From: an uncultured Methylomirabilota bacterium | Lineage (GTDB): Bacteria; Methylomirabilota; Methylomirabilia; Methylomirabilales; 2-02-FULL-66-22 | Reading direction: 5' to 3' | Assembly (NCBI GenBank): GCA_963845565.1 | Contig: CAWJSJ010000002.1 | Location: 1 to 64,000, forward strand | Length of the DNA: 64,000 bases | Part shown: one piece after another, positions 46,857 to 63,516 of the stretch | How positions within the stretch are numbered: position 1 is the stretch's first letter | Layout of the letters: each line of letters opens with the position of its first letter | The notes under the pieces: generated by a model | Databases searched by the model: none | The model's input: the letters and a program-made list of their open reading frames with translations, nothing else | What the model was told of the DNA's origin: nothing | Program-made: the position numbers and the translations under genes

Positions 46857-49001
46857 TCAATGGGACGGCGGGGTCGCCGACCCGGGTGAGGGCCGGTGGA
46901 CGATTTCACTGAGCGCCTGAAGGAGTTCCTCGAATCGAACGGGTTTGTGGAGGATCCGCTCCACGAGCCCCGGCGAGATGTCCACCTCGGCCTGATCCGC
47001 CCAACCGGTCAGGAGAAGCACCGGGATCCGGGGCGCACGAGCCTTGATCGCCCGCGCGACCTCCCACCCGTTCATCCCCGGCATCCCCAGGTCGGTGAGC
47101 ACGCAGTCCACGGAGGCCCCTGCCAGACTCGCCAATCCGGCGGCTCCGCTGTCCGCCTCGATGACCGTATGGCCTGCAGCTTCGAGCAAGCCACTGACGG
47201 TGCGGCGAACGAGGGGTTCGTCGTCGATCACGAGCACACGGCGGGCCGGACCGCGGGTAGCCCCCGGCAAACCGTCTCGCCTCAGGTTTTCCCCCGGGAC
47301 GCGTTGGAATCGGAGCGTGACGGTGGTTCCCTGGCCCGGCACGGATGCCACGGAGACGTTGCCCCCGTGTCGCGCCATGATCCCGTAGGCCACGGAGAGG
47401 CCCAGACCGCTGCCCTTCACCCCTTTCGTGGTGAAGAACGGCTCGAAGATCCGGTGGCGGATCTCGTCGGCGATTCCCCTGCCGGTATCCCGGACCGTGA
47501 GCAGGACTCCCTCGGGATCCACTTTCCCGGCAAAGGAGAGCGTGCCGCCCTCGGGCATCGCATCCACGGCGTTGAAGATCAGATTGGCGAGCGCTTCCCG
47601 GATTTCGGGCGCGTGGCCGAGAATGGGAGGGAGCGCGTCCGGTGCGATCTCCACGCGAATCTGGGCGCCGAGCCGCTGCGGCTCGCCTTCCCAGCGAGGC
47701 CGGGTCAACTCCACGGTTTCCCGGACCGCCTCGCCGAGGTCCACGGGTGCCAGGGGGGCCGTCTCCCCTTGGCGCGCGAAGTCCCGCAGCCGACGGACCA
47801 CCTGTGCGGCGTCGGTTGCGGCGGTCTCGAGAACCAGGAGCCCCTCCCGGACGTGGAGGGGAACCCCGCGGAGCTTCAGGAGTTCGGCCTGGCCCAGGAT
47901 GGCCGCCAGTTTGTTGTTGAGATCGTGCGCAACCCCCGCGGCCATCTGGCCCAGGGCGCGCAACTTCTCGGTGCGGACCATCTCCTCCTGGGCGTGCTCC
48001 AGGTCTCGATAGGCCCGCTCCTGCGCCCGAAACAGGCGGGCGTGCTCGATGGCAATGGCCGCATGGCTGGCGAAGAGGCGCAGGAGCTCTCGGTCATGCT
48101 CGGAAAAGGCAACCCGCGCGTCTTCGGTGTCCATGTGAATCACGCCCACCAAACGGTCTCGATAGAGCAAAGGCGCCGCCATGATGGCCGTGATCCTCGT
48201 GCGCGCGAGGACCTCGGGCGGCGCCCCGGGCCAATGCCGATAATCGTTGACGACCAGACCCTCCCGGCACTCCGCCACCTTCCCGGCCACTCCCTGCCCG
48301 AGCTTCAGGCCGAACTGCTCCCGATTCTCCTCGTCCAGCACCGTGTGGGGAATGAGCAGTTGGGTGGACTCGTCCCAGAGACAGACGCCCCCCCGGCTGT
48401 GCCCCACCAGCTCGCTGAGTCGCCGCCCGACAAGGTGCAGCACCGTCCGGAGATCCAGCTCGCGGGTGATCTCCTCGCTGATGGTCCGGATGGCCTGAAG
48501 TTGCTGGGTGCGGGCCCGCAATTCCCTCTCGGTCCGCTTGCGAGCGGTGATGTCGTGAAATGCGCAGTGTACGGCGAGGAGTCGGCCGCTCGGGTCCCAC
48601 GTCTTCCGTCCGACGGGAGCGATCCAAATGTGCGCGCCGTCTTGGCGGACTGCCTCCCATTCCCCCAGGCACTTCGTGTCGGCCCCGGCCTGCGCGCAAC
48701 ACTCCCGGCACGCCTCCGCGGCGGCCGGCGTGAGGAGTTCGCCGAAGGATCGACCCAGCACCTCGCCGGCCTCGTAACGGAATAGCGCCCGCCATGCCCC
48801 ATTGACGGCAAGGAGCCGACACTCCGGATCGAGGACCTGATATGGAAAGGGGACGTCTTCCAGTCGCACCGAAATTTCGGTCGGGCCGGCGTGTGGCGGG
48901 TCGGCAGAGGTGTCGGAGCCCTGCGGCCCACGCGAGGAGCGGCCGGGCGCACCGCCCGTCTCGCCGCCACTCTGCAATGGCTCCGACTCTGTGCCAGGCA
49001 T
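46857..49001 (-). CDS. Hybrid sensor histidine kinase (PAS-GAF-HisKA-HATPase-REC)
   Basis: HDITARK, GAF segment, GVAHDLNN, NLIFNAVDAM, DTGRG, FFTTK, GSGLGL, VLVIDDE, LTDLGMP, KP. Confidence 0.93.
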   Translation of the reverse strand: MPGTESEPLQSGGETGGAPGRSSRGPQGSDTSADPPHAGPTEISVRLEDVPFPYQVLDPECRLLAVNGAWRALFRYEAGEVLGRSFGELLTPAAAEACRECCAQAGADTKCLGEWEAVRQDGAHIWIAPVGRKTWDPSGRLLAVHCAFHDITARKRTERELRARTQQLQAIRTISEEITRELDLRTVLHLVGRRLSELVGHSRGGVCLWDESTQLLIPHTVLDEENREQFGLKLGQGVAGKVAECREGLVVNDYRHWPGAPPEVLARTRITAIMAAPLLYRDRLVGVIHMDTEDARVAFSEHDRELLRLFASHAAIAIEHARLFRAQERAYRDLEHAQEEMVRTEKLRALGQMAAGVAHDLNNKLAAILGQAELLKLRGVPLHVREGLLVLETAATDAAQVVRRLRDFARQGETAPLAPVDLGEAVRETVELTRPRWEGEPQRLGAQIRVEIAPDALPPILGHAPEIREALANLIFNAVDAMPEGGTLSFAGKVDPEGVLLTVRDTGRGIADEIRHRIFEPFFTTKGVKGSGLGLSVAYGIMARHGGNVSVASVPGQGTTVTLRFQRVPGENLRRDGLPGATRGPARRVLVIDDEPLVRRTVSGLLEAAGHTVIEADSGAAGLASLAGASVDCVLTDLGMPGMNGWEVARAIKARAPRIPVLLLTGWADQAEVDISPGLVERILHKPVRFEELLQALSEIVHRPSPGSATPPSH

Positions 49002-49210
49002 GTGTTCCTCGTCGCGCGCGCCGTGATCGAGTGCCGGGAAGTGTTTCGCGTGGATCCCGTGAATCCTAATCGGTAGCGGCCTGGACGGTCAAGCGAACAA
49101 TCCGGCTTCCGTCCGAACCGGAATTACGGGACTCACGCTCCACCGGAGCAGTGGGCGCCTCGCCTTGTCGTCCTGCCGATGCCCGGGATGCGAGGCCCGG
49201 ACGCACCAGA

Positions 49211-50173
49211 TCATGAGACGATGCGCGGGTACACCACGTGTCCTGCCACGTTGACGCGGATCGAGAACAGGCTCTTTCCCGACACGATGTAAAGGGTCTT
49301 CAGGTCGGGACCGCCGAACGCCAGGTTCGTGATCGCGTCTTCGGGAACCGGGATGCGGCCGAGGAGTTCCCCTTTCGGGGTCACGACGTAAACGCCGGGG
49401 GGGACCTCCGCCGTCTCGTTGGCATGGCGCGCCCTCGTGATCCCCGCGGCGATCCACAGGTTGCCCTCGACATCCGTCCGCATGCCATCCGCGCCTCGCC
49501 CCGGTGCAAAATCGTACACCAGCCGCTGGCCCGATGGCGCCCCGTCGGACGAGAGGTCGAAGGCCCAGATCTTTCGGTTGCCACCCGGGGCTGGGCTGCT
49601 GTCCACCAGGTAGAGCGTCCGATTGTCGGGCGATATCGTGATCCCGTTGGGTTTCTGGATGGCGGGTTGCGAGAGGATGCGTACGACGCGCCCGTCCGGA
49701 TCCAGGCGGTACACGGCCTCGACGCTCAGCTCCAACTCCTCCCGGCGCTCCGCTTTGTATCGCGGGTCAGTGAAGTAGATCCGGCCCCGGCTGTCGATGA
49801 CGAGGTCGTTCGGGCTGTTGTAGCGCTTCCCCTCGTAGCGATCCGTCAGGACCTCCACTACCCCCGTGCGCATGTCCGTCCGGGTGATCCGCCGTCGGCC
49901 GCCGTCCCCGAACTCCGCCCCTTCGCAGGTCACCAGCCGCCCCTGGGCGTCAAACATGTTCCCGTTGGCGCGCCCGCTGTCTGCCCGCCACACCGACAAC
50001 TCGCCGCCGGCCGACCGTTTCATGATCCGGTTGTTCACGATGTCGGAAAAGAACACGTTCCCTTCTGCGTCAACGGCGGGACCCTCGGTAAAGGCCACGA
50101 ACGCTGCGGTGGCCACCTGCGTCTCGGCCACCAGTCCGGCGGGCAAGCCAACAGTCGACAGATCGCGCGGCAT
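49211..50173 (-). CDS. SMP-30/gluconolactonase family protein
   Basis: FTEGP, FSDI, ANGN, YNSPNDL, FTDP, PNGI, ADGM, TNLAFGG. Confidence 0.93.
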   Translation of the reverse strand: MPRDLSTVGLPAGLVAETQVATAAFVAFTEGPAVDAEGNVFFSDIVNNRIMKRSAGGELSVWRADSGRANGNMFDAQGRLVTCEGAEFGDGGRRRITRTDMRTGVVEVLTDRYEGKRYNSPNDLVIDSRGRIYFTDPRYKAERREELELSVEAVYRLDPDGRVVRILSQPAIQKPNGITISPDNRTLYLVDSSPAPGGNRKIWAFDLSSDGAPSGQRLVYDFAPGRGADGMRTDVEGNLWIAAGITRARHANETAEVPPGVYVVTPKGELLGRIPVPEDAITNLAFGGPDLKTLYIVSGKSLFSIRVNVAGHVVYPRIVS

Positions 50174-50371: not shown

Positions 50372-50695
50372 TCAGGGGCGGGCGCTGAGGCGGTCGACAG
50401 GGACGCCGGTCTCTGATCGAGCGGCATCCGTCGGCACCAGGCGAATGGCGTTCACGGCCAGTTCCTCGCACACCTTGGCGCACACGAAGCAGCCGATACA
50501 CTCGTCCTCGCGGATCCTGATGGGGCGTGACGATCGATGGTCGGAATTCGGGGGGGCGGGCTCGATACAATCCACCAGGCAGTAATCCACGCAAGTATTA
50601 CAGCCGGTGCAGTCCTCTTCCACGACCGCCACATAAAGCTGGCGATCCACCAGAGCCTCGGAAGACGCCCTTCCAGCAACATCGGGGCTTGTCAT
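50372..50695 (-). CDS. 2x[4Fe-4S] ferredoxin-like protein
   Basis: CTGCNTCVDYC and CIGCFVCAKVC motifs. Confidence 0.88.
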   Translation of the reverse strand: MTSPDVAGRASSEALVDRQLYVAVVEEDCTGCNTCVDYCLVDCIEPAPPNSDHRSSRPIRIREDECIGCFVCAKVCEELAVNAIRLVPTDAARSETGVPVDRLSARP

Positions 50696-50699
50696 GGGG

Positions 50700-51026
50700 T
50701 TACAACATCCCCAGCTGAAGGCGAGCGGCCTCGCTCATCCGTGACGGCTCCCACGGCGGGTCGAAGACGACCTCGACCCGCGCGTCCATCACGCCCGGGA
50801 CGGACCGCACCTTGGCCTCGACCTGCCCGGGGAGTTCCACGGCCGACGGGCAGTTCGGGGAGGTGAGCGTCATCGTCACCTCGACACTGCCGGACGGATC
50901 CACCTCCACCCCGTAGATCAGGCCCAGCTCGTAGATGTCCACCGGGATCTCCGGGTCATAGCAGGTCTTGATGGCCTCCACGACCTTGCCCTCGATCTCT
51001 TTCGGATCCACCGCGATGCCGCCCAT
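50700..51026 (-). CDS. sufT: SUF system DUF59 protein
   Basis: YDPEIPVDIYELGLIY, MTLTSPNCP, FDPPW, MSEAARLQLG. Confidence 0.92.
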   Translation of the reverse strand: MGGIAVDPKEIEGKVVEAIKTCYDPEIPVDIYELGLIYGVEVDPSGSVEVTMTLTSPNCPSAVELPGQVEAKVRSVPGVMDARVEVVFDPPWEPSRMSEAARLQLGML

Positions 51027-51145
51027 GCCTCACTCCTAGAAAGCCGAGTAGTCAACTGGTCGATGAGTCGACGAGTTCAGATTCGGACCACGCACGACGC
51101 CATCCCCTTTTTGACTAATTGACGAAACGACCAATTGACACGTTC

Positions 51146-51595
51146 TCATTCGGTCGAAACGGCGTCGTCCTTGCCGTCCAGCGCCGCGCGCATGGTGTGC
51201 CACGGCAAGCTGGCGCACTTGACGCGCACCGGGAATTCGCTCACCCCGCAGAACACGGCAAGCTTTCCCAGCTCCATCGGGTCGGCGCCGTTGCCCTCCC
51301 CGGTCACCATGTCGTGGAACTTCGCGAACAACTCCTGCGCCTCGGCCTTGGTCTTGCCCTTCAGCGCGGTGGTCATCAGCGAGGCGGCGGACTGGGAGAT
51401 GGCGCAGCCCGCGCCTTGGAAGCTGATCTCCCTGATCACCTCTCCGTCCATATGGAGGTACACCGTGATCTGGTCCCCGCACAGCGGATTGTGGCCTTCC
51501 GCATGCCGGTTGGCCCCCTCCAGTCGCTGGAAATTGCGCGGCTTCTTGTAATGGTCCAGGATGACCTGTTGGTACAGCTCGCGAAGATCCGGCAT
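51146..51595 (-). CDS. sufU: SUF system NifU-family protein
   Basis: LYQQVILDH, NPLCGD, GCAISQS, RVKCASLPW. Confidence 0.95.
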   Translation of the reverse strand: MPDLRELYQQVILDHYKKPRNFQRLEGANRHAEGHNPLCGDQITVYLHMDGEVIREISFQGAGCAISQSAASLMTTALKGKTKAEAQELFAKFHDMVTGEGNGADPMELGKLAVFCGVSEFPVRVKCASLPWHTMRAALDGKDDAVSTE

Positions 51596-52866
51596 CAGGC
51601 GAACACCTCGATGGCTTTATGGATCGCCTTGGCCAGGGCGTCCAGGTCGGCCCGCGTGTTGTAGAAGGCCAGGGACGCTCGGGCGGTCGCCGGCACCCCG
51701 AACCGCTTCATCACCGGCATGGCGCAGTGGTGCCCGGCCCGGACCGCCACCCCTTCCAGGTCCAGGATCGTCCCGATGTCGTGGGCGTGGATCCCGTCCA
51801 GGACGAAGGACAGCACCCCCGCCTTCTCCTTGGCCGTGCCGATCAGGCGCAAGCCGGGAATGGCCGTGAGGAGCTCGGTCCCGTAGGCCAGCAGCTCCGC
51901 CTCGTGCGCGGCGATCTGGTGCATCCCAACCTTCTCGACATACTCGATGGCGGCGGCCAGCCCGATGGTTCCGGCGATATTGGGCGTCCCTGCCTCGAAC
52001 TTGTGCGGCAGCGCGTTGTAGACCGTCTTCTCGAAGCTCACGGCACTGATCATGTCGCCGCCGCCTTGGTAGGGCGGCATGGCTTCCAGGAGGTCCGCCT
52101 TGCCGTACAGGACCCCGATGCCGGTCGGGCCGAAGAGCTTGTGCCCCGAGAACGCGTAGAAGTCGCAGTCCAGCGCGCGGACGTCCACCGGCATGTGGGG
52201 AATGGCCTGCGCCCCATCCAGTAGGACCGGGATCCCGCGGCTGTGCGCCAGGCCAATGATGTCCGACACCGGATTGACGGTCCCGAGGGCGTTGGAGACC
52301 TGCACCACCGCCACGAGCCTGGTCCGGTCGGAGAGCAGCCGCTCGTACTCGTCCAGCAGGAGCTCGCCGGCATCGTTGATGGGGATGACCTTCAGGTGCG
52401 CCCGCTTTTCCTCGCAGACCATCTGCCACGGGACGATGTTGGAGTGGTGCTCCATGGCCGAGACGATCACCTCGTCGCCGGGCCGGAGGTGTTTCCGTCC
52501 GTAGCTCTGCGCCACCAGGTTGATCCCCTCGGTGGTCCCGCGGGTGAAGATGATCTCCCGGTCGTGGGCCGCGTTCAGGAATTGCCGCACCCGGGTGCGA
52601 CCGCTCTCGTACGCCTGGGTCGCGACCTGACTGAGAAAATGGACGCCCCGATGCACGTTGGAGTTCTCTTCGGTGTAGTAGCGCATCAGCGCATCCAGGA
52701 CCGCCTGCGGTTTCTGCGTGGTGGCGGCGTTGTCGAGATATACCAGCGGCTTGCCGTGAACTTTCGTCCACAGAATGGGGAAGTCCTCGCGGATCTTGTC
52801 CGCACCGAACCCGACCAGACAGTCCTGACAGGGCGGCTCCCCACCGCGATGATGTGTGTGTTTCAT
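51595..52866 (-). CDS. sufS: Cysteine desulfurase
   Basis: [37 protein letters not shown]. Confidence 0.96.
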
Positions 52867-54221
52867 CGGATGCTCTCCACCAGAGCCTCCTGGGGCACCC
52901 ACTGTGCGACCAGCCGCTCCAGGTGGCGGCGGATCGGCTCGACCTTCACGCGCTGGAGCATGTCCCCCGCAAAGGCATGCAGCAAGAGCGCCCGGGCCGA
53001 GGCCTCGGGGATACCACGGGAGCGCAGATAGAAGACGGCCTCGTCGTCGATCTGCCCCACGGTGGCGCCGTGGGTGCATTTCACGTCGTCCGCATAGATC
53101 TCGAGCTGCGGCTTGGTGTCGATCTGGGCGTCCTCCGAGAGGAGCAGGTTCATGTTGGTCTGCTTGGCGTCGGTCTTCTGGGCGTCCTTGTGCACGATGA
53201 TCCGGCCGTGAAACACCCCGTGCGCCTGACCGTCCAGGATGCCCTTGTAGACCTGCCGGCTCGCGCAATGCGGGCTGGCGTGCTCGACCTTCATGTAGTT
53301 GTCCATGTGCTGCCGGCCGTTGGCCATGAACAATCCGTTGATCTGGCACTCACCCCCCTCGCCCGCCAGGACGGGGTGAATGTTACGACGCGTGAGGGCC
53401 CCCCCCAGGAGGAACGTGTGCGAGGTGACGCTGCTGCCCCGGCCCTGCCGGCTGCGCAGGGTCGAGATGTGAAACGCCTGCCGGTTCTCGCGCTGGATCA
53501 GATGATGCGCGACGACGCTTCCGTCGCCCGCCACGACCTCGGTGACCGCGTTGGAGAGATGGACGCCTTCGCCCAGTGAGACATAGTCCTCCACCACCGA
53601 CACCTGGCTCTCCTCCCCGGTCACCACCAGCGTCCGCGGGTGGGTGGCGATCGGCGCAGCGCCCGCCGTCGTCACATAGAGCAGGTGGATCGGCTTCTCG
53701 ACCAGCGCGCCGCGCGGGACCGAGACAAAGGCCCCATCCGTGAGGAAGGCGGTGTTGAGGGCCGAAAAGGCCTCGTGCTGGAAGTCCTCGTGACGGGCGA
53801 GATGCGGCTCCAGCACGCCGCGATCCCCGGCCAGGATCTGGGCAAGGCTCCCGGCCCGGACGCCGGCCGGCAAGGGGGACAGCCTGGACAAGCCCAGCGC
53901 AAATCGGCCGTTCACGAAGACCAGCCGCGAACAATTGCCGTCCGCGAACGTGAACGGGTCGAGCGACCGCGCATCCACCCCCGGCGCGACACTCTCGGCC
54001 GGTCGGAAGGCGATCTGCACGAGGGGGGCGAGGTTCGTGAATCGCCAGTCTTCATCGTGCGTCGTCGGGAACCCGAGCTCCTCGAGCCGCCCGATCGCCG
54101 CGCGGCGGACCGGGTGTAGCCACGCCTGGCCGCCCTTGGCCCAGAGCGGCTCGACGGTCCTGAAACTCTGCAAGAAACCATCCAGGGCCTGTGTCACGTT
54201 CATGGTAGCTTTCCCAGCCAT
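52863..54221 (-). CDS. sufD: Fe-S cluster assembly protein SufD
   Basis: [41 protein letters not shown]. Confidence 0.95.
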
Positions 54222-54241
54222 GGTATATGCCCTTTCCCCGC

Positions 54242-55006
54242 CTAGGCCCGGGCCAGTTGGGCGGCCTCGGCCTCGATCCCGACGTACCCCTGCGCCTCCA
54301 GTTCCAGCGCGAGCTCTTTCCCACCGGACTTGACGATCCGTCCGTCTACCAGGACGTGCACGAAGTCCGGAACGATGTAGTTCAGGAGGCGCTGGTAGTG
54401 GGTCACGACCAGCATGGCGCGCGCGGGGCTGCGCAGCGCGTTGACCCCGTTGGCGACGATCTTCAAGGCGTCGATGTCCAGACCGGAATCGGTCTCGTCC
54501 AGGATCGCAAGCTTCGGCTGCATGACCGCCATGTGGAAGATCTCGTTCCGCTTCTTTTCGCCGCCGGAGAATCCTTCGTTCACCGAGCGACTCAGCAAAC
54601 CCTCGTCGATGTCCAGCAGTTTCATCTTGGCCTTGACCAGCGCCAGGAAATCCATCGCGTCCAGTTCCTCCTGGCCGTGGTGTTTCCGGACGGCGTTGAC
54701 CGCCGCCTTCAGGAAATACGTATTGTTGACGCCGGGGATCTCCACCGGATACTGAAAGGCCAGGAAGACCCCCTCGCAGGCCCGTTCCTCCGGCGACATC
54801 TCCACCAGGTTCCTCCCCAGATACAGGATCTCGCCCTGGGTGACCTGGTAGGTTTCCCGGCCGGCCAGGACCTGGGCCAGCGTGCTCTTGCCGGAGCCGT
54901 TGGGGCCCATGATGGAATGGACCTCGCCGGCGCGCACCGTCAGATTCAAGCCCTTCAGGATCTCGCGACCGTTGACCGTGGCGTGCAGATTTTTGATCTC
55001 AAGCAT
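54242..55006 (-). CDS. sufC: Fe-S cluster assembly ATPase SufC
   Basis: MGPNGSGKST, FQYPVEIPGV, GFSGGEKKRNE, DETDSGLDIDAL, THYQRLL. Confidence 0.97.
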   Translation of the reverse strand: MLEIKNLHATVNGREILKGLNLTVRAGEVHSIMGPNGSGKSTLAQVLAGRETYQVTQGEILYLGRNLVEMSPEERACEGVFLAFQYPVEIPGVNNTYFLKAAVNAVRKHHGQEELDAMDFLALVKAKMKLLDIDEGLLSRSVNEGFSGGEKKRNEIFHMAVMQPKLAILDETDSGLDIDALKIVANGVNALRSPARAMLVVTHYQRLLNYIVPDFVHVLVDGRIVKSGGKELALELEAQGYVGIEAEAAQLARA

Positions 55007-55081
55007 TGTTGTCCTCTACCGGGAAGATTCCCATGCCAGGCCTTGGCGACCTTGGCGCCTTGGCGGTTCAAGAAACCGATT

Positions 55082-56539
55082 CTACCCTACGCTGCCCTCG
55101 AGGCTCACGCTCAGGAGCTTTTGCGCCTCGACGGCGAATTCCATCGGCAACTCCTTGAAGACCTGCTTGCAGAACCCGCTCACGATGAGCGAGACGGCGT
55201 CCTCTTTGGAGATGCCGCGCTGGTTGCAGTAGAAGATCTGGTCCTCCCCGATCTTGGACGTGGACGCCTCGTGTTCCATCCGGGCCGTGGCGTTCTTCAC
55301 CTCGATATACGGGAAGGTGTGCGCCCCGCACTGGTCGCCGATCAGCAGCGAGTCGCACTGCGTGTAGTTCCGTGCCCCCCTGGCCCCCTTCTGGATCTTG
55401 ACCATGCCGCGGTAGGTGTTCTGGCCGTGGCCGGCGGAGATCCCTTTGGAGACGATGGTGCTCTTGGTGTTCTTGCCGATGTGGATCATCTTGGATCCGG
55501 TGTCCGCTTGCTGGCGATTGTTCGTGAGGGCCACCGAGTAGAACTCACCCACGGATCCGTCGCCTTGCAGGATGCAGCTCGGGTACTTCCAGGTGATGGC
55601 GGAACCGGTCTCCACCTGCGTCCAGGAGATGTGAGAGTTCCGCCCCTGACACTTGCCGCGCTTGGTGACGAAGTTATAGATGCCCCCTTTGCCGTTCTTG
55701 TCCCCGGGGTACCAGTTCTGGATCGTGGAGTATTTGATCTGCGCGTCATCGAGCGCCACCAGTTCCACCACGGCGGCGTGCAGTTGATTCGTGTCCCGGA
55801 TCGGCGCCGTGCACCCCTCCAGGTAGCTCACGTAGGCCCCCTCCTCCGCCACGATCAGGGTGCGCTCGAACTGGCCGGTGTCCGCCGCGTTGATCCGGAA
55901 GTAGGTGCTGAGCTCCATCGGGCAGCGAACGCCCTTGGGAATGTAGCAGAACGACCCGTCGCTGAAGACGGCGGCGTTCAGGGCGGCGAAGAAGTTGTCG
56001 GTGTACGGGACGACCGAGCCCAGGTATTTCTGGATCAGCGCCGGGTGGTTCTGGACCGCCTCGGAGAACGAGCAGAAGACGATGCCCAGCTCGGCCAGCT
56101 TCTCCTTGAAGGTGGTGGCCACCGAGACGCTGTCGAACACGGCGTCCACCGCCACGCCGGTCAAGCGCTTCTGTTCCTCCAGTGGAATACCGAGCTTCTC
56201 GAACGTCCGGCGGACTTCCGGGTCCACCTCGTCCAGGCTCGTGAGCGTCTTCTTCGGCTTGGGCGCCGAGTAATAGACGATGTCCTGATAGTCGATGGGT
56301 GGATAGCTGATATTGGCCCACCTGGGTTCCGCATCCGACTTCTGCAGCGTGACCCAGTGCCGGTAGGCCTTGAGCCGCCAGGCGAGCATGAACTCGGGCT
56401 CGTTCTTCTTGGCCGAGATCAGACGGACGGTGTCCTCGCTCAACCCGCGAGGAGCGGCATCCGCCTCGACATCGGTCACGAACCCGTATTTGTATTCCTG
56501 GTTGGCGAGGGCCTCGATCATGTTGGCGGAGGTGGTCAT
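55082..56539 (-). CDS. sufB: Fe-S cluster assembly protein SufB
   Basis: [46 protein letters not shown]. Confidence 0.97.
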
Positions 56540-56605
56540 GTCGTCTCCCTGTGTGTCATGTCGATTCGGATTCACTATGCCGCACGGACGCCGGCGGCGA
56601 AACGA

Positions 56606-56989
56606 TCAACGGGCCCCGGCACCGAGGGCCAGATGGCGCCTTCCGGCTGATTCAGCGACGACCGCCTGCAATTCCCCGTCGGAGTCGGGACCAAGGACGA
56701 CGTGCGGAATGCCTTGCTGCACGACCGGCCGCGCCTCCACGCTGGGAGACGCGGACACCGCAACGATCGGCAGGCCTGGGGAAAGCTCTTGGACGGCGGA
56801 AGCCAGGAGGGGTCCGCCCAGTCCGTGGGTCCCGAGGTCCAGCACGACGACGTCTGCAGCCAGCGCCTTGACGGCCGCTAAGAGCTCCATGCCCGAGTCG
56901 CACGCCGTGAGCCGGCGCCCGTCGCTCTCAAGGGCGGCACAAACGACCTGCCTGACCGCTGTATTGTCTGTGCAAAGAATGACGTGCAT
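56606..56989 (-). CDS. Atypical single-domain response-regulator receiver protein
   Basis: REC-like pattern (VILCTD, DVVVLD, PIVAVSA); RBS GAGGAG; lacks the conserved Lys. Confidence 0.7.
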   Translation of the reverse strand: MHVILCTDNTAVRQVVCAALESDGRRLTACDSGMELLAAVKALAADVVVLDLGTHGLGGPLLASAVQELSPGLPIVAVSASPSVEARPVVQQGIPHVVLGPDSDGELQAVVAESAGRRHLALGAGAR

Positions 56990-57021
56990 GACACTCCTCG
57001 AGCTCTACGGTGGTTAGTAAC

Positions 57022-57037
57022 AGCAATGAATGTACCA
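57022..57037 (-). promoter_or_regulatory. Sigma54 (-24/-12) promoter for the REC-suf operon
   Basis: Minus strand TGGTACATTCATTGCT has GG-N10-GC spacing and one mismatch to TGGCAC-N5-TTGCW; about 33 bp upstream of ATG 56989. Confidence 0.75.
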
Positions 57038-57135
57038 AAACATCCTGATCTCATCCTCATTCATAACATATTGGATCTAATTGAAAAAAGTCTGACAATA
57101 GACAGAACCGTGGACCATGTGGTAAGCGCTAGGCG

Positions 57136-57169
57136 TGGGAGATTCTCCCAGGGGTGGGAGGATCTCCCA
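57136..57169. promoter_or_regulatory. Twin palindromic upstream activator (enhancer-like) sites
   Basis: TGGGAGATTCTCCCA (57136-57150) and TGGGAGGATCTCCCA (57155-57169), 19 bp apart, about -125 to -158 from the predicted start site. Confidence 0.7.
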
Positions 57170-57546
57170 GGGACTACGAAGGAGGGACACGCCGAGATCG
57201 GGCGGCCTGTTCGGTTGACACGCGGCTGGAACGCCATGAGAATCCGGCCGCACCGCGGGATCCGATACGTCCTCCTTCTGTCGCGAAGGCGCAGCGAGGC
57301 ACCATCGAAGAACGGTCCGCACTCTGGGGAGGAGACTACACGTACAGATTCGATCCGGCGAGATTCAGGGATATGCTCGAGCAGGTTACGATGGACGCCG
57401 GGTATTCGTTCGAAGTGACGCTGGTCGAGAAGTCGGTCTAGCGGCTCAAACGGCAGAACCAGAGCCTCGTGCGCAGGCGGTGGCGCGGCCTTCCCCTCAT
57501 CTTCCCCACCGGTGGAAGGAGGCCGCGGCGAGGGTGGTCGACCATA

Positions 57547-57573
57547 AGAGGGGGCGAACGGTCCGCCCCCTCT
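57547..57573 (-). terminator. Possible terminator hairpin after the secreted CBM-like protein
   Basis: AGAGGGGGCG-N7-CGCCCCCTCT 10-bp stem; weak U-tract. Confidence 0.45.
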
Positions 57574-57609
57574 CGGTATCGGATCAACGCCCTGAGGGTT
57601 ATCTCTGGT

Positions 57610-58578
57610 TTATTGCGGAATCTGGCCGGGTGCAGTCAGTGCGAACTCGTCCAGGACGAACGCCGCCGACGTCGTCTGGGCCTTCGTGAAGGCGATAGTA
57701 TTCTGTCCCGCACGCAGATCGACGCTCCCGATCTTGATGTTCACCCACCCCCCGGTGTCACGGCTCGGGTTGCTCCATGCCAGGGCCTTGGCGCCGTTGA
57801 CATACACCTCCACCGATCGAGCGCCCGCTGCGTGCTTTCCGTCATCGTCGAAGCGAATCCAGAGATCGTACCGACCCGCGGGAGCGCTGACCGTGTAGGT
57901 CGCCGTGGCGCGGCCATCGCCGAGATACACGAAGCCGCCTCGGCCTCCGGGGCGGGGCGAGGACGGCTTGGAGAACGTGTATTGTCCGGCTCCGGAAATC
58001 GTACCGCTCTCGGCCGGGACCACGATGCGTCCGCCGCCAGGCGTCGTCCCACCTGTCGTTCCGCCTGTGGTACCGCCGGTCGTTCCGCCCGTGGTACCGC
58101 CGCTGGTCGTGCCACCCGTGGCGCCGCCGGTCGTGCCTGTAGGCGGCTTCCCGGGCCCGGTTCCGCCGGTCTGAGGCGCGCAGCCGCTCACTTTGCCGTC
58201 CTGGGTGATCTGGATGACGTTTCCGGCTTTGCACGACTGCTGCGCCCCGGCAGTGTTGATGACACGGGCGGCGTCCAAGGCCAGCGTGCAGTACTTCACC
58301 TTGCTGGTCCCCGCATAGAACTCCACCATATTACCACCCTTGCAGGTGATGCCGAGACCGCCGACGCTGAATGGCGTGTCGGAGGCCAGAACGCACCCGG
58401 TGATGGTGGTGGGATACTTGCCCCAGGGTTTGTTGGTCGCCAGCACCCCGCCGCTGCACCGCACGGTGAAGTTGCTGCCATCGATCGGGAACTCGGTTTG
58501 TGCGCCGGCCACCGACGACAGGAGCGCTACGACCCCCACGATTGTCACCGCAAGAACCCCAAAAGACGATCGGCTCAT
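57610..58578 (-). CDS. Secreted protein: Cys-rich N-domain, (GGTT)n linker, C-terminal CBM6/35-like domain
   Basis: Signal peptide (…SSVAGA-Q); GGTT repeats; PAESG, TYTVSAPAGRYDLWIRF, VYVNG, VDLRAGQNTIAF, LDEFAL. Confidence 0.75.
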   Translation of the reverse strand: MSRSSFGVLAVTIVGVVALLSSVAGAQTEFPIDGSNFTVRCSGGVLATNKPWGKYPTTITGCVLASDTPFSVGGLGITCKGGNMVEFYAGTSKVKYCTLALDAARVINTAGAQQSCKAGNVIQITQDGKVSGCAPQTGGTGPGKPPTGTTGGATGGTTSGGTTGGTTGGTTGGTTGGTTPGGGRIVVPAESGTISGAGQYTFSKPSSPRPGGRGGFVYLGDGRATATYTVSAPAGRYDLWIRFDDDGKHAAGARSVEVYVNGAKALAWSNPSRDTGGWVNIKIGSVDLRAGQNTIAFTKAQTTSAAFVLDEFALTAPGQIPQ

Positions 58579-59038
58579 CGGGTCACTCCTCGATGTCCCT
58601 TCGCCGCTCGGCATGCGTGACCGAGAAGCGTCAGGACCGTGTTGTGGTTGGGCGCGGCCACCGAGTGCGAAGACATCGCCGGTGGTGCCGCAGCGGAGAA
58701 AGATCCTCGCGAAAACGCCCTACGGAGGAACGCTACTGAACGGAGGGATGGGGTCAAGGTGAAACGAGACGGCAGGCGCAGTTGTCCGCAGCGAAGGACA
58801 ATCACGATCGCCGGAGGCAATGGCTCGCCTGCCTCGATCCGCGGCCTGAGCAAGACACGCCGTGCCCCGCGTGGCAAGCCGGCGCGCCGCGCGTTGAGGC
58901 CGACGGCGCGACCTGGAACCCCGGACGGACAGGGCCGAGGAACCCACACCGCCGCTGTGTTTCCGAGACGCCGCCCAGGCGATCCGGTGCCGGGAGGCGG
59001 AGCCTCGGACGTCTCGGACCCTGCGGCTAACGATGGTC

Positions 59039-60415
<1,377 letters not shown>

Positions 60416-60537
60416 GGTGGTTCCTTGGTGACGCTGCGGTCCGAAGGGTTGACGGAGACGGCGATTTGGCAGGCGATCAGGCAATCACGAGGGCTCGCTT
60501 CCCAAATCGCGAAGTTGCCCAATGACCCAGTTGCCTG

Positions 60538-62384
60538 TCATGCCGCCAGCGGCAGCCGGATGCTCACCGTCGTCCCCTGTCCGGGGCCTCGGCTGACAAC
60601 CTCGATTCGGCCGCCGTGCTGCTCCACGATGCTCTGGCAAATGGCCAGCCCCAGGCCCGTTCCCTTCCCGACCTCTTTGGTGGTGAAGAAGGGGTCAAAG
60701 ATCTTGGAGAGATGCGCGGCGGCGATGCCGGCGCCGGTGTCCGCCACGACGATCTCGACCCAGTCGAGGGCGGAGATCGGGGGATTGGTGATTGGGGGAT
60801 CAGGGAAATCGCCTCGATGCCGGTGCCTGGTTCCCGGTTGACTCTCGCCTGATCGCCGGGTTGTCCCCCCGTCGGGGCGCGCCGCGCGGTGACCGTGATT
60901 TCGCCGCCCCCCTCGACCGCATCGAGGGCGTTGGTGAGGAGGTTCAGCAAGACTTGGTGGAGCATCTGCGAGTCCCCGCGCACGATGGCGCCGTCGCCGA
61001 TGGGCTCCATCCGGATCTGCCGGTTGGCCAGGCGCGCTTGCCGCTCCACGAAGGCGACCGCCTCGCGCATGACCTGTCCCACGTCCACGGGGCCGAACGC
61101 GGGCTCTCGCTGCCGGGCGAAATCCAAGAGGCGCCGGACGATCGCCGCCGCGCGGCCGACTTCGCTCTGGATCATTCCGAGATACTCGCGACAGTCGCCG
61201 AACCGCCGATCGTCTCCGCACGCCCCCTCGCTGACATGGCGCTGCAGCGCTTCCGCGAAGCCCGCCACCGCGGACAGGGGATTGTTCAGCTCGTGGGCCA
61301 CGCCGGCGGCCAACCGGCCGAGCGAGGCCAGCTTCTCCTGCCGGACCAGCAGATCCTGCGACTGCTGCAATTCTTCGAAGGAGCGGGTCAGTTGTTCGTA
61401 CAGGCTGGCGTTCTCGATGGCCACGGCGGCCTGCCCGGCGAGGGTCACCGCGAGCTGCTCGTCCTCTTTGCTGAACTCCTCCGCCCCCTGCTTCTCGGTC
61501 AGATAGAGATGGCCGAACACCCGCCCTCGCGAGATGATGGGAACCCCTAGAAACGATCGCATCATCGGGTGGTGCCGCGGGAACCCGTGGGCCCGCGGAT
61601 CCGCCGTGAGGTCGCGCAGCCGGAGCGGTCGCCGCTCCCGGACGGCGACGCCGAGGATCCCCGCTCCCTGCGGCGGCGGCCCGATGGCCTCCCGCTGCGC
61701 CTCGGTGAGGCCCGTCGTCACGAACTGCTCCACCGCACCCGACGGATCTAGCGTGCCGAGCGCCCCGTACCGTGCCCCGAGGAGCCGGCAGGCGACCTCG
61801 ACGATCCGCTGCAGGACGGCGGCCAGCGAGCGCTCCGCGCTCAGGGCTTTGCCGGCCTCGACCAACGCCTCGAGCTGCGCGCGGCTGCGACCCACCGCCC
61901 GCTCGCGTTCCTGGAGAAATGCCATGGCCACGATCGTCAGTATCCGGTTCACGACGGGTTCGTACAGGTCCAGGCCTGCCGCCGCCTCGCCGCAATCCTG
62001 GAGATACCGGCGGCTCAGCGCGCGCCCGCACACGTCCCGCAGCACGAGGAGTCGCCCCATGACCTGCGTGGCCCCGATGCCCCGGAAGACGTCCCGTTCG
62101 GCCATGTCCTGGGCATACGCCTGGGCGCTGTGGTAGCGCCCCGTCTCGAGACACTCGACCAGGGCGTCGTAGACCTTGGCGGACTCGGATTCGGCCTCGG
62201 CCGGCGAGAGGAGCTTCCCGAAACCGCGCCGCGCCATCTCCGACACCCAGGCGCGTTGGATGGCTTCTCGCTCCGCCCGCAGGTGGCGCACGATCGTCGA
62301 AACCGCCTCCTCGTGCGAGGCCGCAGGCTGCCGCGCCGGCTCACCGGCGGGTAACTTGGCTCTGGGTTTCCGTGCTCCCGGCAT
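60538..62384 (-). CDS. Sensor histidine kinase: RsbRD-N-like + DosS-like GAF + HisKA + HATPase (frameshift near 60815)
   Basis: Helical N-domain; ARYGALG...GFPRHHPMMRSFLGVPI...FGHLYLTEK; GVAHELNNPL; NLLTNALDA; in the second frame DTGAG, FFTTK, GTGLGL. Confidence 0.9.
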
Positions 62385-62478
62385 CGATTCACCAACCGGA
62401 CGGCGATTGGGCGCGTTGGCGATTTGACAATCGGTTTTCGTGGATATCACGACCGACCGTGCCGGACAAGGGGATTCG

Positions 62479-63516
62479 TCACTCGGTGAGGAAGGGCAGG
62501 GCGGCCGTCTCGCCGGAAAACGCGTCGGGGCCCGCGCCGATGCAAAGTGGTGTGCCGGGCTCCCAACATTCCCGCCGGAGGTGGGCGAGGGCGATCACAC
62601 GGCCCAGGACGGGAGACCGCACGGCGCTGGTCACGCGCCCGACCGTACGATCCCCCAGGACGACCGGCATGCCCGGTGCCGGAACCGTTTCCCCCGTGAC
62701 CAACAGGCCGCACAACCGCTTGTTCAGGTGTCCCTGGTGCTCGGCGCGGATGACCACCTCTTGGCCGACGTAACAGCCCTTGGTGAAGCTCACGTGATCC
62801 GCCGTCAACGATTCCATCAGGAGGCTGTTGTCGTCGTAGTCCACGCCGAACCAGGGCCAGGCCGCTTCCACGCGCAACCACTCCAGTGCCGCGGTCCCGA
62901 CCGGCCGGAGCCCGGCGGCGGACCCGTCCCGGAGGATCTGTCCCCAGGCCGCCCCTGCCGCGTCTGCGGGAATCAACAGGTCGAAGCCGGGAAGCCGGAG
63001 CCACCGGCTGGCGCTGACCCGGACCGGGACCTCGCCGAGCCGAACTTCACGGTGGTGCCAGGGGGCAAGGTCACCGATCTCCTGCCCGAGCGCCGCGGTC
63101 AGCGCGCGCGTCGCCGCCGGGCCTGCGACCATGAGATGAGTGAAGCGGGCGCTCAGGTCGGCCACCTGGACGTCATCGGCGATGATGTGTCGATCGAAGG
63201 CATTCTGCACCGCCTCGAGGCGGTCCCGGTGGAGATCGATCCATACCGCGTCCGTCAGCCCGTACACGGCCAACTCGGCCAGGAGGCGCCCCTTGACGGT
63301 GAGCGCCGCCGCCAGGCACCCCGCACCGCTCGGCAAGGTCTTGACCTCGTTGGTGATCTGTCCGTTCAGCCAGCGAAGCCGCTCTCCGCCGGTGAGCTGC
63401 AGCAGGCCGCGAAACGAGAAATCCACCAGGCCGGCACCGCTCCGGACGGCGCGGTACTCTCCCAACGGGTCGCCAAAGTGCGTCGGCACCTCGACACCAG
63501 CCCGCTCGGCGAACAC
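62479..63516 (-). CDS. ygfZ: YgfZ/GcvT-family folate-binding protein (true start slightly upstream, unclear)
   Basis: WLNGQITN, LTVKGR, LRVEA, signature SFTKGCYVGQE, GRVTS. Confidence 0.85.
   Translation of the reverse strand: MFAERAGVEVPTHFGDPLGEYRAVRSGAGLVDFSFRGLLQLTGGERLRWLNGQITNEVKTLPSGAGCLAAALTVKGRLLAELAVYGLTDAVWIDLHRDRLEAVQNAFDRHIIADDVQVADLSARFTHLMVAGPAATRALTAALGQEIGDLAPWHHREVRLGEVPVRVSASRWLRLPGFDLLIPADAAGAAWGQILRDGSAAGLRPVGTAALEWLRVEAAWPWFGVDYDDNSLLMESLTADHVSFTKGCYVGQEVVIRAEHQGHLNKRLCGLLVTGETVPAPGMPVVLGDRTVGRVTSAVRSPVLGRVIALAHLRRECWEPGTPLCIGAGPDAFSGETAALPFLTE

Follow-up and report, generated by a model that had tools for sequence, protein, structure and literature searches.

Which regulator drives the SUF operon of an uncultured Methylomirabilota bacterium is the question raised by the window analysed here, a stretch of 64,000 nucleotides. 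As the original prediction held, no SufR, IscR or Rrf2 gene adjoins sufB, and the three Rrf2 and three Fur genes scoring over cut-off all lie elsewhere in the genome. The prediction further assigned control of suf to the neighbouring kinase-activator pair acting through sigma54, with ygfZ as a member of the circuit. Synteny, motifs and co-variation sustain the core of this proposal, though not the inclusion of ygfZ, and suggest that a dedicated haem-sensing two-component system probably turns on the SUF operon via sigma54.

The locus and the suf leader

All the named genes lie on the minus strand and belong to the expected families (Table 1), as judged by Pfam and, for YgfZ, SufB, SufC, SufD, SufS, SufU and the SufT-type protein, by NCBIfam; the sufBCD scaffold, SufS and SufU that define a SUF system all pass NCBIfam cut-offs. 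RNA run X15 (contigs only) holds near-identical contig pieces over sufB, the REC gene, the kinase gene and ygfZ. The last of these adjoins the kinase gene in just 4 of 25 relatives' loci, all from its own genus (6 loci whose upstream stretch was too short being left out), and is probably a neighbour outside the conserved circuit. Among the loci seen, the terminal ferredoxin gene also occupies the same place in its own genus only, and is no conserved member of the unit. The promoter and the activator gene, which had been read as adjacent, are both present but are separated by a previously missed and unrelated gene for a 322-aa protein, which Atlas points to CBM6/35 at 0.82 only. This gene has no counterpart in the relatives' loci examined, and was accordingly rejected as a circuit component in favour of a lineage-specific insertion, a passenger.

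Table 1. Genes and regulatory elements of the suf locus (window positions)
Feature	Position	Strand	Description
ygfZ	62479..63516	-	YgfZ/CAF17-like Fe-S maturation protein; TIGR03317 72.1 bits, above cut-off 49
Histidine kinase gene	60538..62384	-	candidate RsbR-N-like globin domain, DosT-type GAF, HisKA, HATPase (Pfam); soluble; frame break near 60771-60843
NtrC/AtoC-type sigma54 activator gene	59039..60415	-	REC-AAA+-HTH (Pfam); recognition helix GIDIKTLNKK
322-aa secreted-type protein gene	57610..58578	-	G/T-rich linker, possible carbohydrate-binding module; no Pfam match
Candidate operator site 1	57155..57169	-	GGAG-N3-CTCC core
Candidate operator site 2	57136..57150	-	19 bp from site 1; centre 107 bp from -24 GG
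A+T-rich spacer	57039..57135	.	59% A+T; possible bending/IHF region
Sigma54 -24/-12 promoter	57022..57038	-	TTGGTAC-N4-TTGCT; GG 57036/57035, GC 57024/57023
Stand-alone atypical receiver (REC) gene	56606..56989	-	PF00072; opens operon
sufB	55082..56539	-	Pfam and NCBIfam cut-off passed
sufC	54242..55006	-	Pfam and NCBIfam cut-off passed
sufD	52863..54221	-	Pfam and NCBIfam cut-off passed
sufS cysteine desulfurase	51595..52863	-	Pfam and NCBIfam cut-off passed
sufU	51146..51595	-	TIGR01994 cut-off passed
sufT/DUF59	50700..51026	-	SufT-type TIGR02945 cut-off passed
2x[4Fe-4S] ferredoxin gene	50372..50695	-	Pfam

The leader ahead of REC-sufBCDSUT contains both elements claimed for it, a sigma54 box (57038-57022) and twin palindromes (57169-57136), and the GG and GC of the box place the predicted transcription start near 57011. 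A strict tandem TGGGA-N5-TCCCA pair occurs a single time in the 5.36-Mb genome. When scored with matrices derived from relatives only, the combination of box and twin site ranks first in the genome at 58.3, with the next match at 42.7 and the best in the reversed control at 16.6. The box alone was rejected as evidence, given that the 48 boxes above 14 bits, as against 54 in the reversed genome, do not exceed background. Twin site and box are in register in all 15 leaders tested (excluding 3 more that are truncated at a contig end), with a spacing of 18-21 and a distance of 92-122 in relatives, and are the only conserved elements seen in the leaders. The features expected of a sigma54 promoter, namely a -24/-12 box, paired sites about 80-150 bp upstream and rpoN in the genome (one copy), are all present. 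An IHF site in the spacer was rejected for too little conservation, the best IHF-like match being 7/9 here and 5-8/9 in relatives, whose spacers range from 0.32 to 0.71 in A+T. A weak scan of the leader's minus strand turned up no sigma70-like site, and the terminator scan of the leader was likewise unhelpful.

Activator, kinase and receiver

The activator has the architecture and motifs of the NtrC group, and its predicted intact GAFTGA loop was borne out: GAFTGA, Walker A/B and the receiver phospho-acceptor Asp61 and Lys111 show no variation across the 11 activators aligned. The genome encodes about 31 sigma54 activators, only the neighbouring one of which has a D[IL]KTL recognition helix. 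In five Rokubacteriales-side genomes this helix is GIHLKTLNRK (H-type) instead of GIDIKTLNKK (D-type), and the operator there is a twin GGGACAAAACG, found behind the activator gene and also at the separate REC-suf promoters of two genomes (G112 and G213); this twin motif occurs in 7 of 251 genomes, with none in the control. Activators of a sister clade, which have the D-type helix, retain the GGAG-type operator beside their own genes. On a quick tree the switch is one evolutionary event in one clade. The co-variation of recognition helix and operator, extending to distant suf promoters, is the best evidence that the kinase-activator pair is cognate, and points indirectly to predicted binding of the activator at the twin sites and RpoN-dependent transcription.

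The kinase gene lies beside the activator gene as described, but is frameshifted near 60771-60843, so that the end of the ATP-binding domain lies in a different frame, which had been missed. The frame break is an assembly error: an intact 617-aa homologue (P0010) is 99.6% and 100% identical to the two kinase halves and a run contig over the break carries 7 extra bases, on which grounds a pseudogene was rejected. The GAF domain is of the DosS/DosT type, in keeping with its earlier comparison to DosS/DevS GAF-A, but is nearer to DosT than to DosS, the best solved match being DosT (2vzw, E 3.6e-37) and the fold rmsd to DosS/DosT 2.3-2.4. When aligned to 2vzw it has the proximal His, distal Tyr and channel residue whose roles are described in PMC4082495, and these are retained in 114, 112 and 107 (as Gly) of 120 homologues, respectively. 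The earlier reading of the domain content had overlooked an additional helical domain at the N-terminus, a candidate RsbR-N-like globin domain that scores below cut-off for PF14361 (E 0.0026) and superimposes on 3zta with Z 15.2 and rmsd 1.9 over 133 aligned residues. Its Cys78 is invariant and His85 near-invariant in 65 close homologues. The kinase core is NtrB/ZraS-like, unlike that of DosT.

The stand-alone receiver retains Cys6, Cys30 and Asp51 in 76 of 76 aligned sequences, and in its structure model the two Cys lie where strands 1 and 2 end. Despite the retention of Asp51 and Ser79, it departs from canonical phosphorylatable receivers in its degenerate acid pocket and the absence of the conserved Lys. 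Its most likely role would be feedback on the kinase-activator pair.

In the circuit that we infer from these features, the soluble kinase would bind haem in its DosT-type GAF domain, read the O2/NO (redox) state and phosphorylate the adjacent NtrC-family activator. The latter would then bind the paired GGAG-N3-CTCC sites, which lie some 110 bp upstream, and open the -24/-12 promoter, giving a transcript of REC, followed in relatives by mrp, ferredoxin and erpA genes, and sufBCDSUT, with the two-cysteine receiver encoded by the first gene possibly feeding back on the pair. The polarity of the signal is the weakest step of this model. By analogy with DosT, suf may on balance be ON at low O2 or with NO bound; a system ON with O2 is a possible but less favoured reading, and in the same estimate a signal other than gas appears rather improbable. 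As the core resembles NtrB/ZraS and not DosT, the polarity of DosT need not apply to this kinase.

Conservation across the order and rival explanations

The gene order, box and operator recur in relatives, as the original prediction required of synteny and motif conservation. The order kinase-activator-operator-box-REC-sufB is common to many relatives in families f1, f4, f5 and f6, and a composite pattern of twin site and box, which the source locus misses by one base in its strict form, is found in 23 of 66 genomes of the order, with one match each and none in the control. These matches are followed by the REC gene in 21 cases and by ferredoxin-mrp-sufB in one, the remaining one running off its contig. 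In metagenomes, 64 of 72 matches have the -12 GC, which the pattern did not require, and among the 68 that are followed by 300 nt of sequence, 51 run into REC, mrp or suf. A looser twin pattern, present in 81 of 251 genomes of the phylum, was rejected as evidence and used only for locating loci, since its control is about as frequent outside the own genus. Of 65 genomes of the order, 51 have the kinase, as do 20 of 20 in family f7, whose kinase genes are remote from suf (by about 650 kb in the single-contig genome G053) although the operator is still kept; the kinase-activator pair is order-wide, even where unlinked from suf. A scan of named genomes with the kinase alignment gave generic kinases at 30-42% identity among the matches listed, its patterns lying within the catalytic core. 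As for exceptions, the pair is present in G240, where no sigma54 box was found ahead of sufB, and in G001 and G011 sufB lies behind another gene and no promoter was seen on the short contigs.

That the pair is cognate and suf under sigma54, but the signal not a gas, is an unlikely alternative: the GAF domain would respond to haem occupancy, as a measure of iron or haem status, or to cytoplasmic redox, or else the signal would come from the globin-like N-domain or the two-cysteine receiver. The argument for gas sensing comes from residue conservation, G008 retains the system with a kinase that lacks the GAF domain, the N-domain and receiver have their own conserved residues noted above, and gas versus redox sensing is disputed for DosS (PMC4082495). 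On the other hand, distant families have a divergent N-domain, and G053 and G024 have lost it but keep the GAF domain; the channel position is occupied by Gly, which is also the residue in DosT, described as a stable-oxy gas sensor (PMC4082495).

In a second rival reading the promoter and operator are real but driven by one or more other activators, the neighbouring pair being linked by ancestry only. The many activators of the genome, a similar twin site and box beside an FhlA-like activator (C5:646659), and a second related activator in family f4 are consistent with this, as are two genomes in which the promoter is kept and the cognate pair not found: G012 (95% complete), with promoter, operator and suf and neither kinase nor activator found, and G207 (94%, 900 contigs), with an H-type promoter and no H-type activator found. 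Both assemblies are incomplete, however, the operator tracks the recognition helix at linked and unlinked promoters alike, and no other activator in the genome has the D[IL]KTL helix; this explanation is very improbable. Slightly less so, though still improbable, is that sigma54 provides an inducible layer only, while basal suf expression and the main control depend on a sigma70 promoter together with an Rrf2/Fur repressor encoded at a distance, for which the genome has candidate genes. SufU is the only U-type scaffold found in three f7 genomes, and suf is therefore probably essential and in need of basal expression; against this stand the outcome of the weak sigma70 scan and the restriction of conserved leader elements to twin site and box. 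Such a layer is partly compatible with the preferred explanation, that of sigma54 control by the neighbouring haem-type pair.

Relationship to known systems and significance

Related regulation is known from the NtrB-NtrC, AtoS-AtoC and ZraS-ZraR systems, and from the sigma54-dependent control of nifUS by NifA. The former three share the kinase plus activator architecture and provide the best NCBIfam matches (AtoS and ZraS for the kinase; AtoC, NtrC and ZraR for the activator), but all their equivalog cut-offs are missed here, the activator scoring 435 against 558.6 for NtrC, 475.7 against 714 for AtoC and 383 against 760 for ZraR. A close parallel in logic is NmpRSTU of Myxococcus xanthus, described as a haem-binding soluble kinase and an NtrC-like activator acting via paired sites and sigma54 promoters on an oxygen-linked regulon, with an additional receiver-only protein proposed as a phosphate sink (PMC11841059). 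All these elements have likely counterparts here, haem binding being predicted from sequence; the differences lie in the sensor and relay, a protoglobin and a phosphorelay there versus a DosT-type GAF and a simple pair with no hybrid kinase within the locus here, and in the operator (GCGCA-N5-TGCGC versus GGAG-N3-CTCC), and no SUF target was seen named for NmpRSTU (PMC11841059). With DosS/DosT-DosR the kinase shares the GAF-A proximal His and distal Tyr and the channel Gly of DosT (PMC4082495), but it has a single GAF instead of a tandem, an added candidate RsbR-N-like domain, an NtrB/ZraS-type HisKA core and a sigma54 activator as partner in place of DosR. OrpR of Desulfovibrio vulgaris is a redox-responsive sigma54 activator with two sites, high anaerobically and needed for operons linked to Fe-S proteins; it is, however, a one-component PAS [4Fe-4S] sensor that controls the orp operons and not the SUF assembly machinery (PMC8359166). 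IscR, SufR, RisR, Fur and OxyR have the suf operon as target, as here, but are mostly one-component cluster or stress sensors acting at promoters of the sigma70 type; a review of suf regulators nowhere uses "two-component", "sigma", "RpoN" or "NifA" in its main text, the Greek letter sigma being uncounted (PMC8593673, PMC9973013). In Bradyrhizobium DOA9, suf genes are down in rpoN mutants, an effect reported from transcriptomes of cells growing by nitrogen fixation, and no mention of a dedicated activator was seen (PMC13207237). The claim of an unfamiliar regulatory logic therefore needs narrowing: a haem kinase with an NtrC-type activator and sigma54, and sigma54 at Fe-S-related genes, are both known, and it is the dedicated use for SUF that was not found described in the literature covered, mainly article texts outside the subscription journals.

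The genome belongs to NC10/Methylomirabilales, and the host group comprises wetland and sediment bacteria, including methane oxidisers. To our knowledge, no genetics exist for the methane oxidisers of the Methylomirabilales. With the operator and promoter, the kinase and activator, and a naturally occurring switch of specificity defined, reconstruction of the circuit in E. coli and assays on purified sensor protein become feasible. SUF regulators described so far are mostly one-component sensors of clusters, iron or peroxide. Control by a dedicated haem two-component system via sigma54 would extend the known means of regulating Fe-S biogenesis by one that is shared across an uncultured order with methane oxidisers among its members. 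NO-dismutating methanotrophs produce O2 internally from NO, and the sensor and promoter would offer a handle on how such organisms monitor these gases. It is conceivable, if doubtful, that the Methylomirabilales have swapped cluster-sensing repressors for a kinase that senses NO/O2 through haem and gates the whole of Fe-S biogenesis via sigma54, ON at low O2 or with NO present, including in the pmoA-bearing family where SUF looks like the sole Fe-S assembly system, and with the two-cysteine pseudo-receiver reporting cluster or redox status to the pair. If true, this would reverse the paradigm of stress-induced SUF, and would provide a direct readout of the internal NO/O2 balance in NO-dismutating methanotrophs.

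Genes and promoter of the locus

The original prediction placed ygfZ, the sensor kinase, the activator, a stand-alone receiver (REC), the suf genes and a ferredoxin on the minus strand; ORF listing and family scans agree, and add a 322-aa secreted-type gene that it had omitted between the activator and the leader. The product of this gene gave no match in the Pfam scan and weak carbohydrate-binding leads only, and it has no counterpart in the relatives' loci examined. The gap between the activator stop and the operator is an insertion hotspot (window 57170-59038; loci L034, L035, L040 and L107 of relatives). In the window it holds the secreted-type gene; the relatives have there a short-chain dehydrogenase, remnants resembling toxin-antitoxin genes, or a block of 5 kb. 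A run contig lacks 56990-59071. Downstream of the ferredoxin, on the same strand, lie a PAS-GAF hybrid kinase and an SMP-30/gluconolactonase gene (46857-50173), the latter also present in the related genome G009.

Features of the suf locus in the window
Feature	Coordinates	Strand	Basis or placement
ygfZ	62479-63516	minus	ORF listing and family scans
Histidine kinase	60538-62384	minus	ORF listing and family scans
NtrC-type activator	59039-60415	minus	ORF listing and family scans
322-aa secreted-type gene	57610-58578		separates the activator from the leader
sigma54 -24/-12 box	57038-57022	minus	
REC	56606-56989	minus	ORF listing and family scans
sufB, C, D, S, U, T, then ferredoxin		minus	ORF listing and family scans

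The sigma54 box alone is not above chance, with 48 occurrences in the genome versus 54 in the reversed genome. The predicted combination of this box with two palindromes, 19 bp apart in the leader, is nevertheless the top composite of the genome when the scoring matrices come from relatives alone (58.3, against 42.7 for the runner-up and 16.6 for the control). Among 18 leaders extracted, box and twin site occur in all 15 tested, at a spacing of 18-21 bp and 92-122 bp from the GG; the other three are cut by contig starts, and neither element was seen in them. A strict composite pattern, from which the window departs by one base, occurs once each in 23 of the 66 genomes of the order (including the unpublished G026; control 0), preceding the REC gene in 21, a ferredoxin-mrp-sufB series in one, and running off the contig in one. 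In metagenome loci, the -12 GC, which the search pattern did not require, is present in 64/72; of the 68 that extend at least 300 nt downstream, 51 continue into REC, mrp or suf, and 24 of the 44 with 1 kb upstream have the activator within 3 kb. On the whole, the suf promoter and operator are almost certainly real.

The second-scoring site (C5:646630-646790 of the same genome, outside the window) is a twin site with a sigma54 box directly behind a broken FhlA-like activator, before a small ORF and sulfatase-like genes, and is either a second target or the look-alike site of another activator. A good sigma54-like box lies immediately before an Rrf2-family gene at C5:535174. At other loci the same promoter type also precedes genes, named by eye from translations, for type II NADH dehydrogenase-like and rhodanese-like proteins, sigma70-family sigma factors and a 7Fe ferredoxin (L303, L315, L364, L316, L319, L326, L336, L345; L108-L112); the regulon may extend beyond suf.

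Probable pairing of the activator with the suf promoter

As the genome encodes about 31 sigma54 activators, proximity is weak evidence that the neighboring one is cognate. No activator of the genome other than that in the window carries the D-type recognition helix GID[ILV]KTL. In G112, G168, G213, G229 and G240, all five outside the order, the activator of the pair instead carries GIHLKTLNRK (H-type), and the operator, directly behind it, is twin GGGACAAAACG; in G112 and G213, where REC-suf has a promoter of its own elsewhere, this operator occurs there too. This motif was found in seven of 251 genomes (control 0), namely these five, G102, where it lies beside a close activator, and G207, which has the H-type promoter and in which no H-type activator was found. 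In a quick tree, the four GIHLKTLNRK activators included (G240 left out as frameshifted) group as a single clade within the suf activators (SH-aLRT 98), so the helix-operator change is one event, observed at promoters of two kinds. Sister activators that have the D-type helix (~48% identical; Rokubacteriales-side loci L078-L092, L096, L097) keep beside themselves the same GGAG-type operator as the suf leaders, the activator being adjacent in 17 and the sigma54 box present in 14 of 18 loci chosen because they carry the motif; operator and box drive two small uncharacterized ORFs, with perR-rubrerythrin-Fe-S protein genes often next in line, and no DosT-type kinase adjoins the activator at L078-L092, L096 and L097.

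The kinase occurs in 51/65 genomes of the order versus 6/185 outside it (tallies that include the unpublished G026 and G044). The predicted linkage of kinase and activator stands, in that the two adjoin in the loci examined. Also in favor of the pairing, in all 20 genomes of family f7 the pair lies away from suf (~650 kb in the single-contig G053) with no operator behind the activator, yet the suf leader retains the operator. Against it, besides G207, the 95% complete G012 retains promoter and suf, the pair not being found, and in G240 the pair is present and no box was found before sufB. Elsewhere outside the order, sufB loci mostly lack such a promoter, and one has an Rrf2 gene. Taken together, the neighboring pair is very probably cognate to the suf promoter. 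The inclusion of ygfZ in the circuit is not supported, as it adjoins the kinase in four of 25 loci, all of the window's own genus.

Sensor kinase and receiver

The kinase GAF, originally likened to mycobacterial DosS/DevS GAF-A, has as its best solved match 2vzw (E 3.6e-37), which we take to be DosT GAF-A, in agreement with the glycine in the DosS/DosT review, and DosS comes second. Among 120 homologues, 114 have the proximal His, 112 the distal Tyr and 107 the channel Gly. In that review (PMC4082495), roles are given for these residues, the Gly separates DosT from DosS, and DosT is active in its deoxy form, with an activity that NO or CO raises further and O2 suppresses. As the kinase core is ZraS/AtoS-like, this polarity is not confidently transferable. 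The domain at the N terminus is similar to the globin domains of stressosomes (3zta; Z 15.2, rmsd 1.9, 133 residues); it diverges rapidly, and G053 and G024 (L098, L103) have lost it. From the conserved GAF residues, haem-based gas or redox sensing by the kinase is predicted as likely. The whole GAF is missing in frame at L042:7167-8660 (G008) and L320, with activator, operator and suf kept, reflecting either a real deletion or misassembly.

In the window assembly the ATP-binding domain shifts frame near 60771-60843. A contig from run X9 over 60725-62096 has seven extra bases at the break, restoring the frame, and the 617-aa database protein P0010 matches the two kinase halves at 99.6% and 100% identity; hence, the break is read as an assembly error. 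Short imperfect CAAT/CGCC-rich repeats (60420-60540, 60770-60845, 62400-62445) sit between genes and inside the kinase variable loop, the site of this error.

REC keeps Asp51 and lacks the acid-pocket pair and Lys. Its Cys6 and Cys30, invariant in 76/76 aligned sequences, end strands 1 and 2 in a confident model (pLDDT 87). Since REC opens the induced operon, it would most simply be a feedback element of the circuit.

Known systems and Fe-S assembly

A haem kinase acting through an NtrC-like activator and sigma54 is already described in NmpRSTU (PMC11841059), as is a redox-sensing sigma54 activator of Fe-S-related operons, OrpR (PMC8359166); PexR, a one-component GAF activator of peroxide genes (PMC12754779), is not closer to the window system. 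In Bradyrhizobium DOA9, rpoN mutants show lowered suf expression (PMC13207237), and a review and a paper name IscR, SufR, RisR, Fur and OxyR in suf control (PMC8593673, PMC9973013). No description of this kinase-activator-sigma54 system for suf was found in the literature searched. The system is thus a known kind of logic on a target, suf, where no description was found, and the mechanism as a whole, in which the pair senses and the activator fires suf via sigma54, is favored with some reserve.

In relatives, the operon frequently has an extra Mrp/ApbC, 7Fe ferredoxin, ErpA/IscA and small Cys-rich ORF before sufB, which strengthens its Fe-S character. The Cys-rich ORF (a motif with CC and CxxC; e.g. 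L139:15642-16052) lies between REC and mrp in several families, and it and its relatives gave no match in an NCBIfam search. In L038 (G021), a NuoB-like gene lies within the operon near its promoter end, and sufT is followed by an additional NifU_N gene.

The window's genome also has nifU-nifS (C2:2055729-2057852), nifU being apparently split in this assembly. The organisms that the kinase homologues come from put this genome in NC10/Methylomirabilales. pmoA was found in both f7 genomes tested and in none of three others, the window's genome among the three. NifU-like matches occur in 9/66 genomes of the order, all of the window's own genus, and SufU is the only U-type protein found in three f7 genomes; hence, the suf genes behind this promoter are probably the sole Fe-S assembly machinery of f7.
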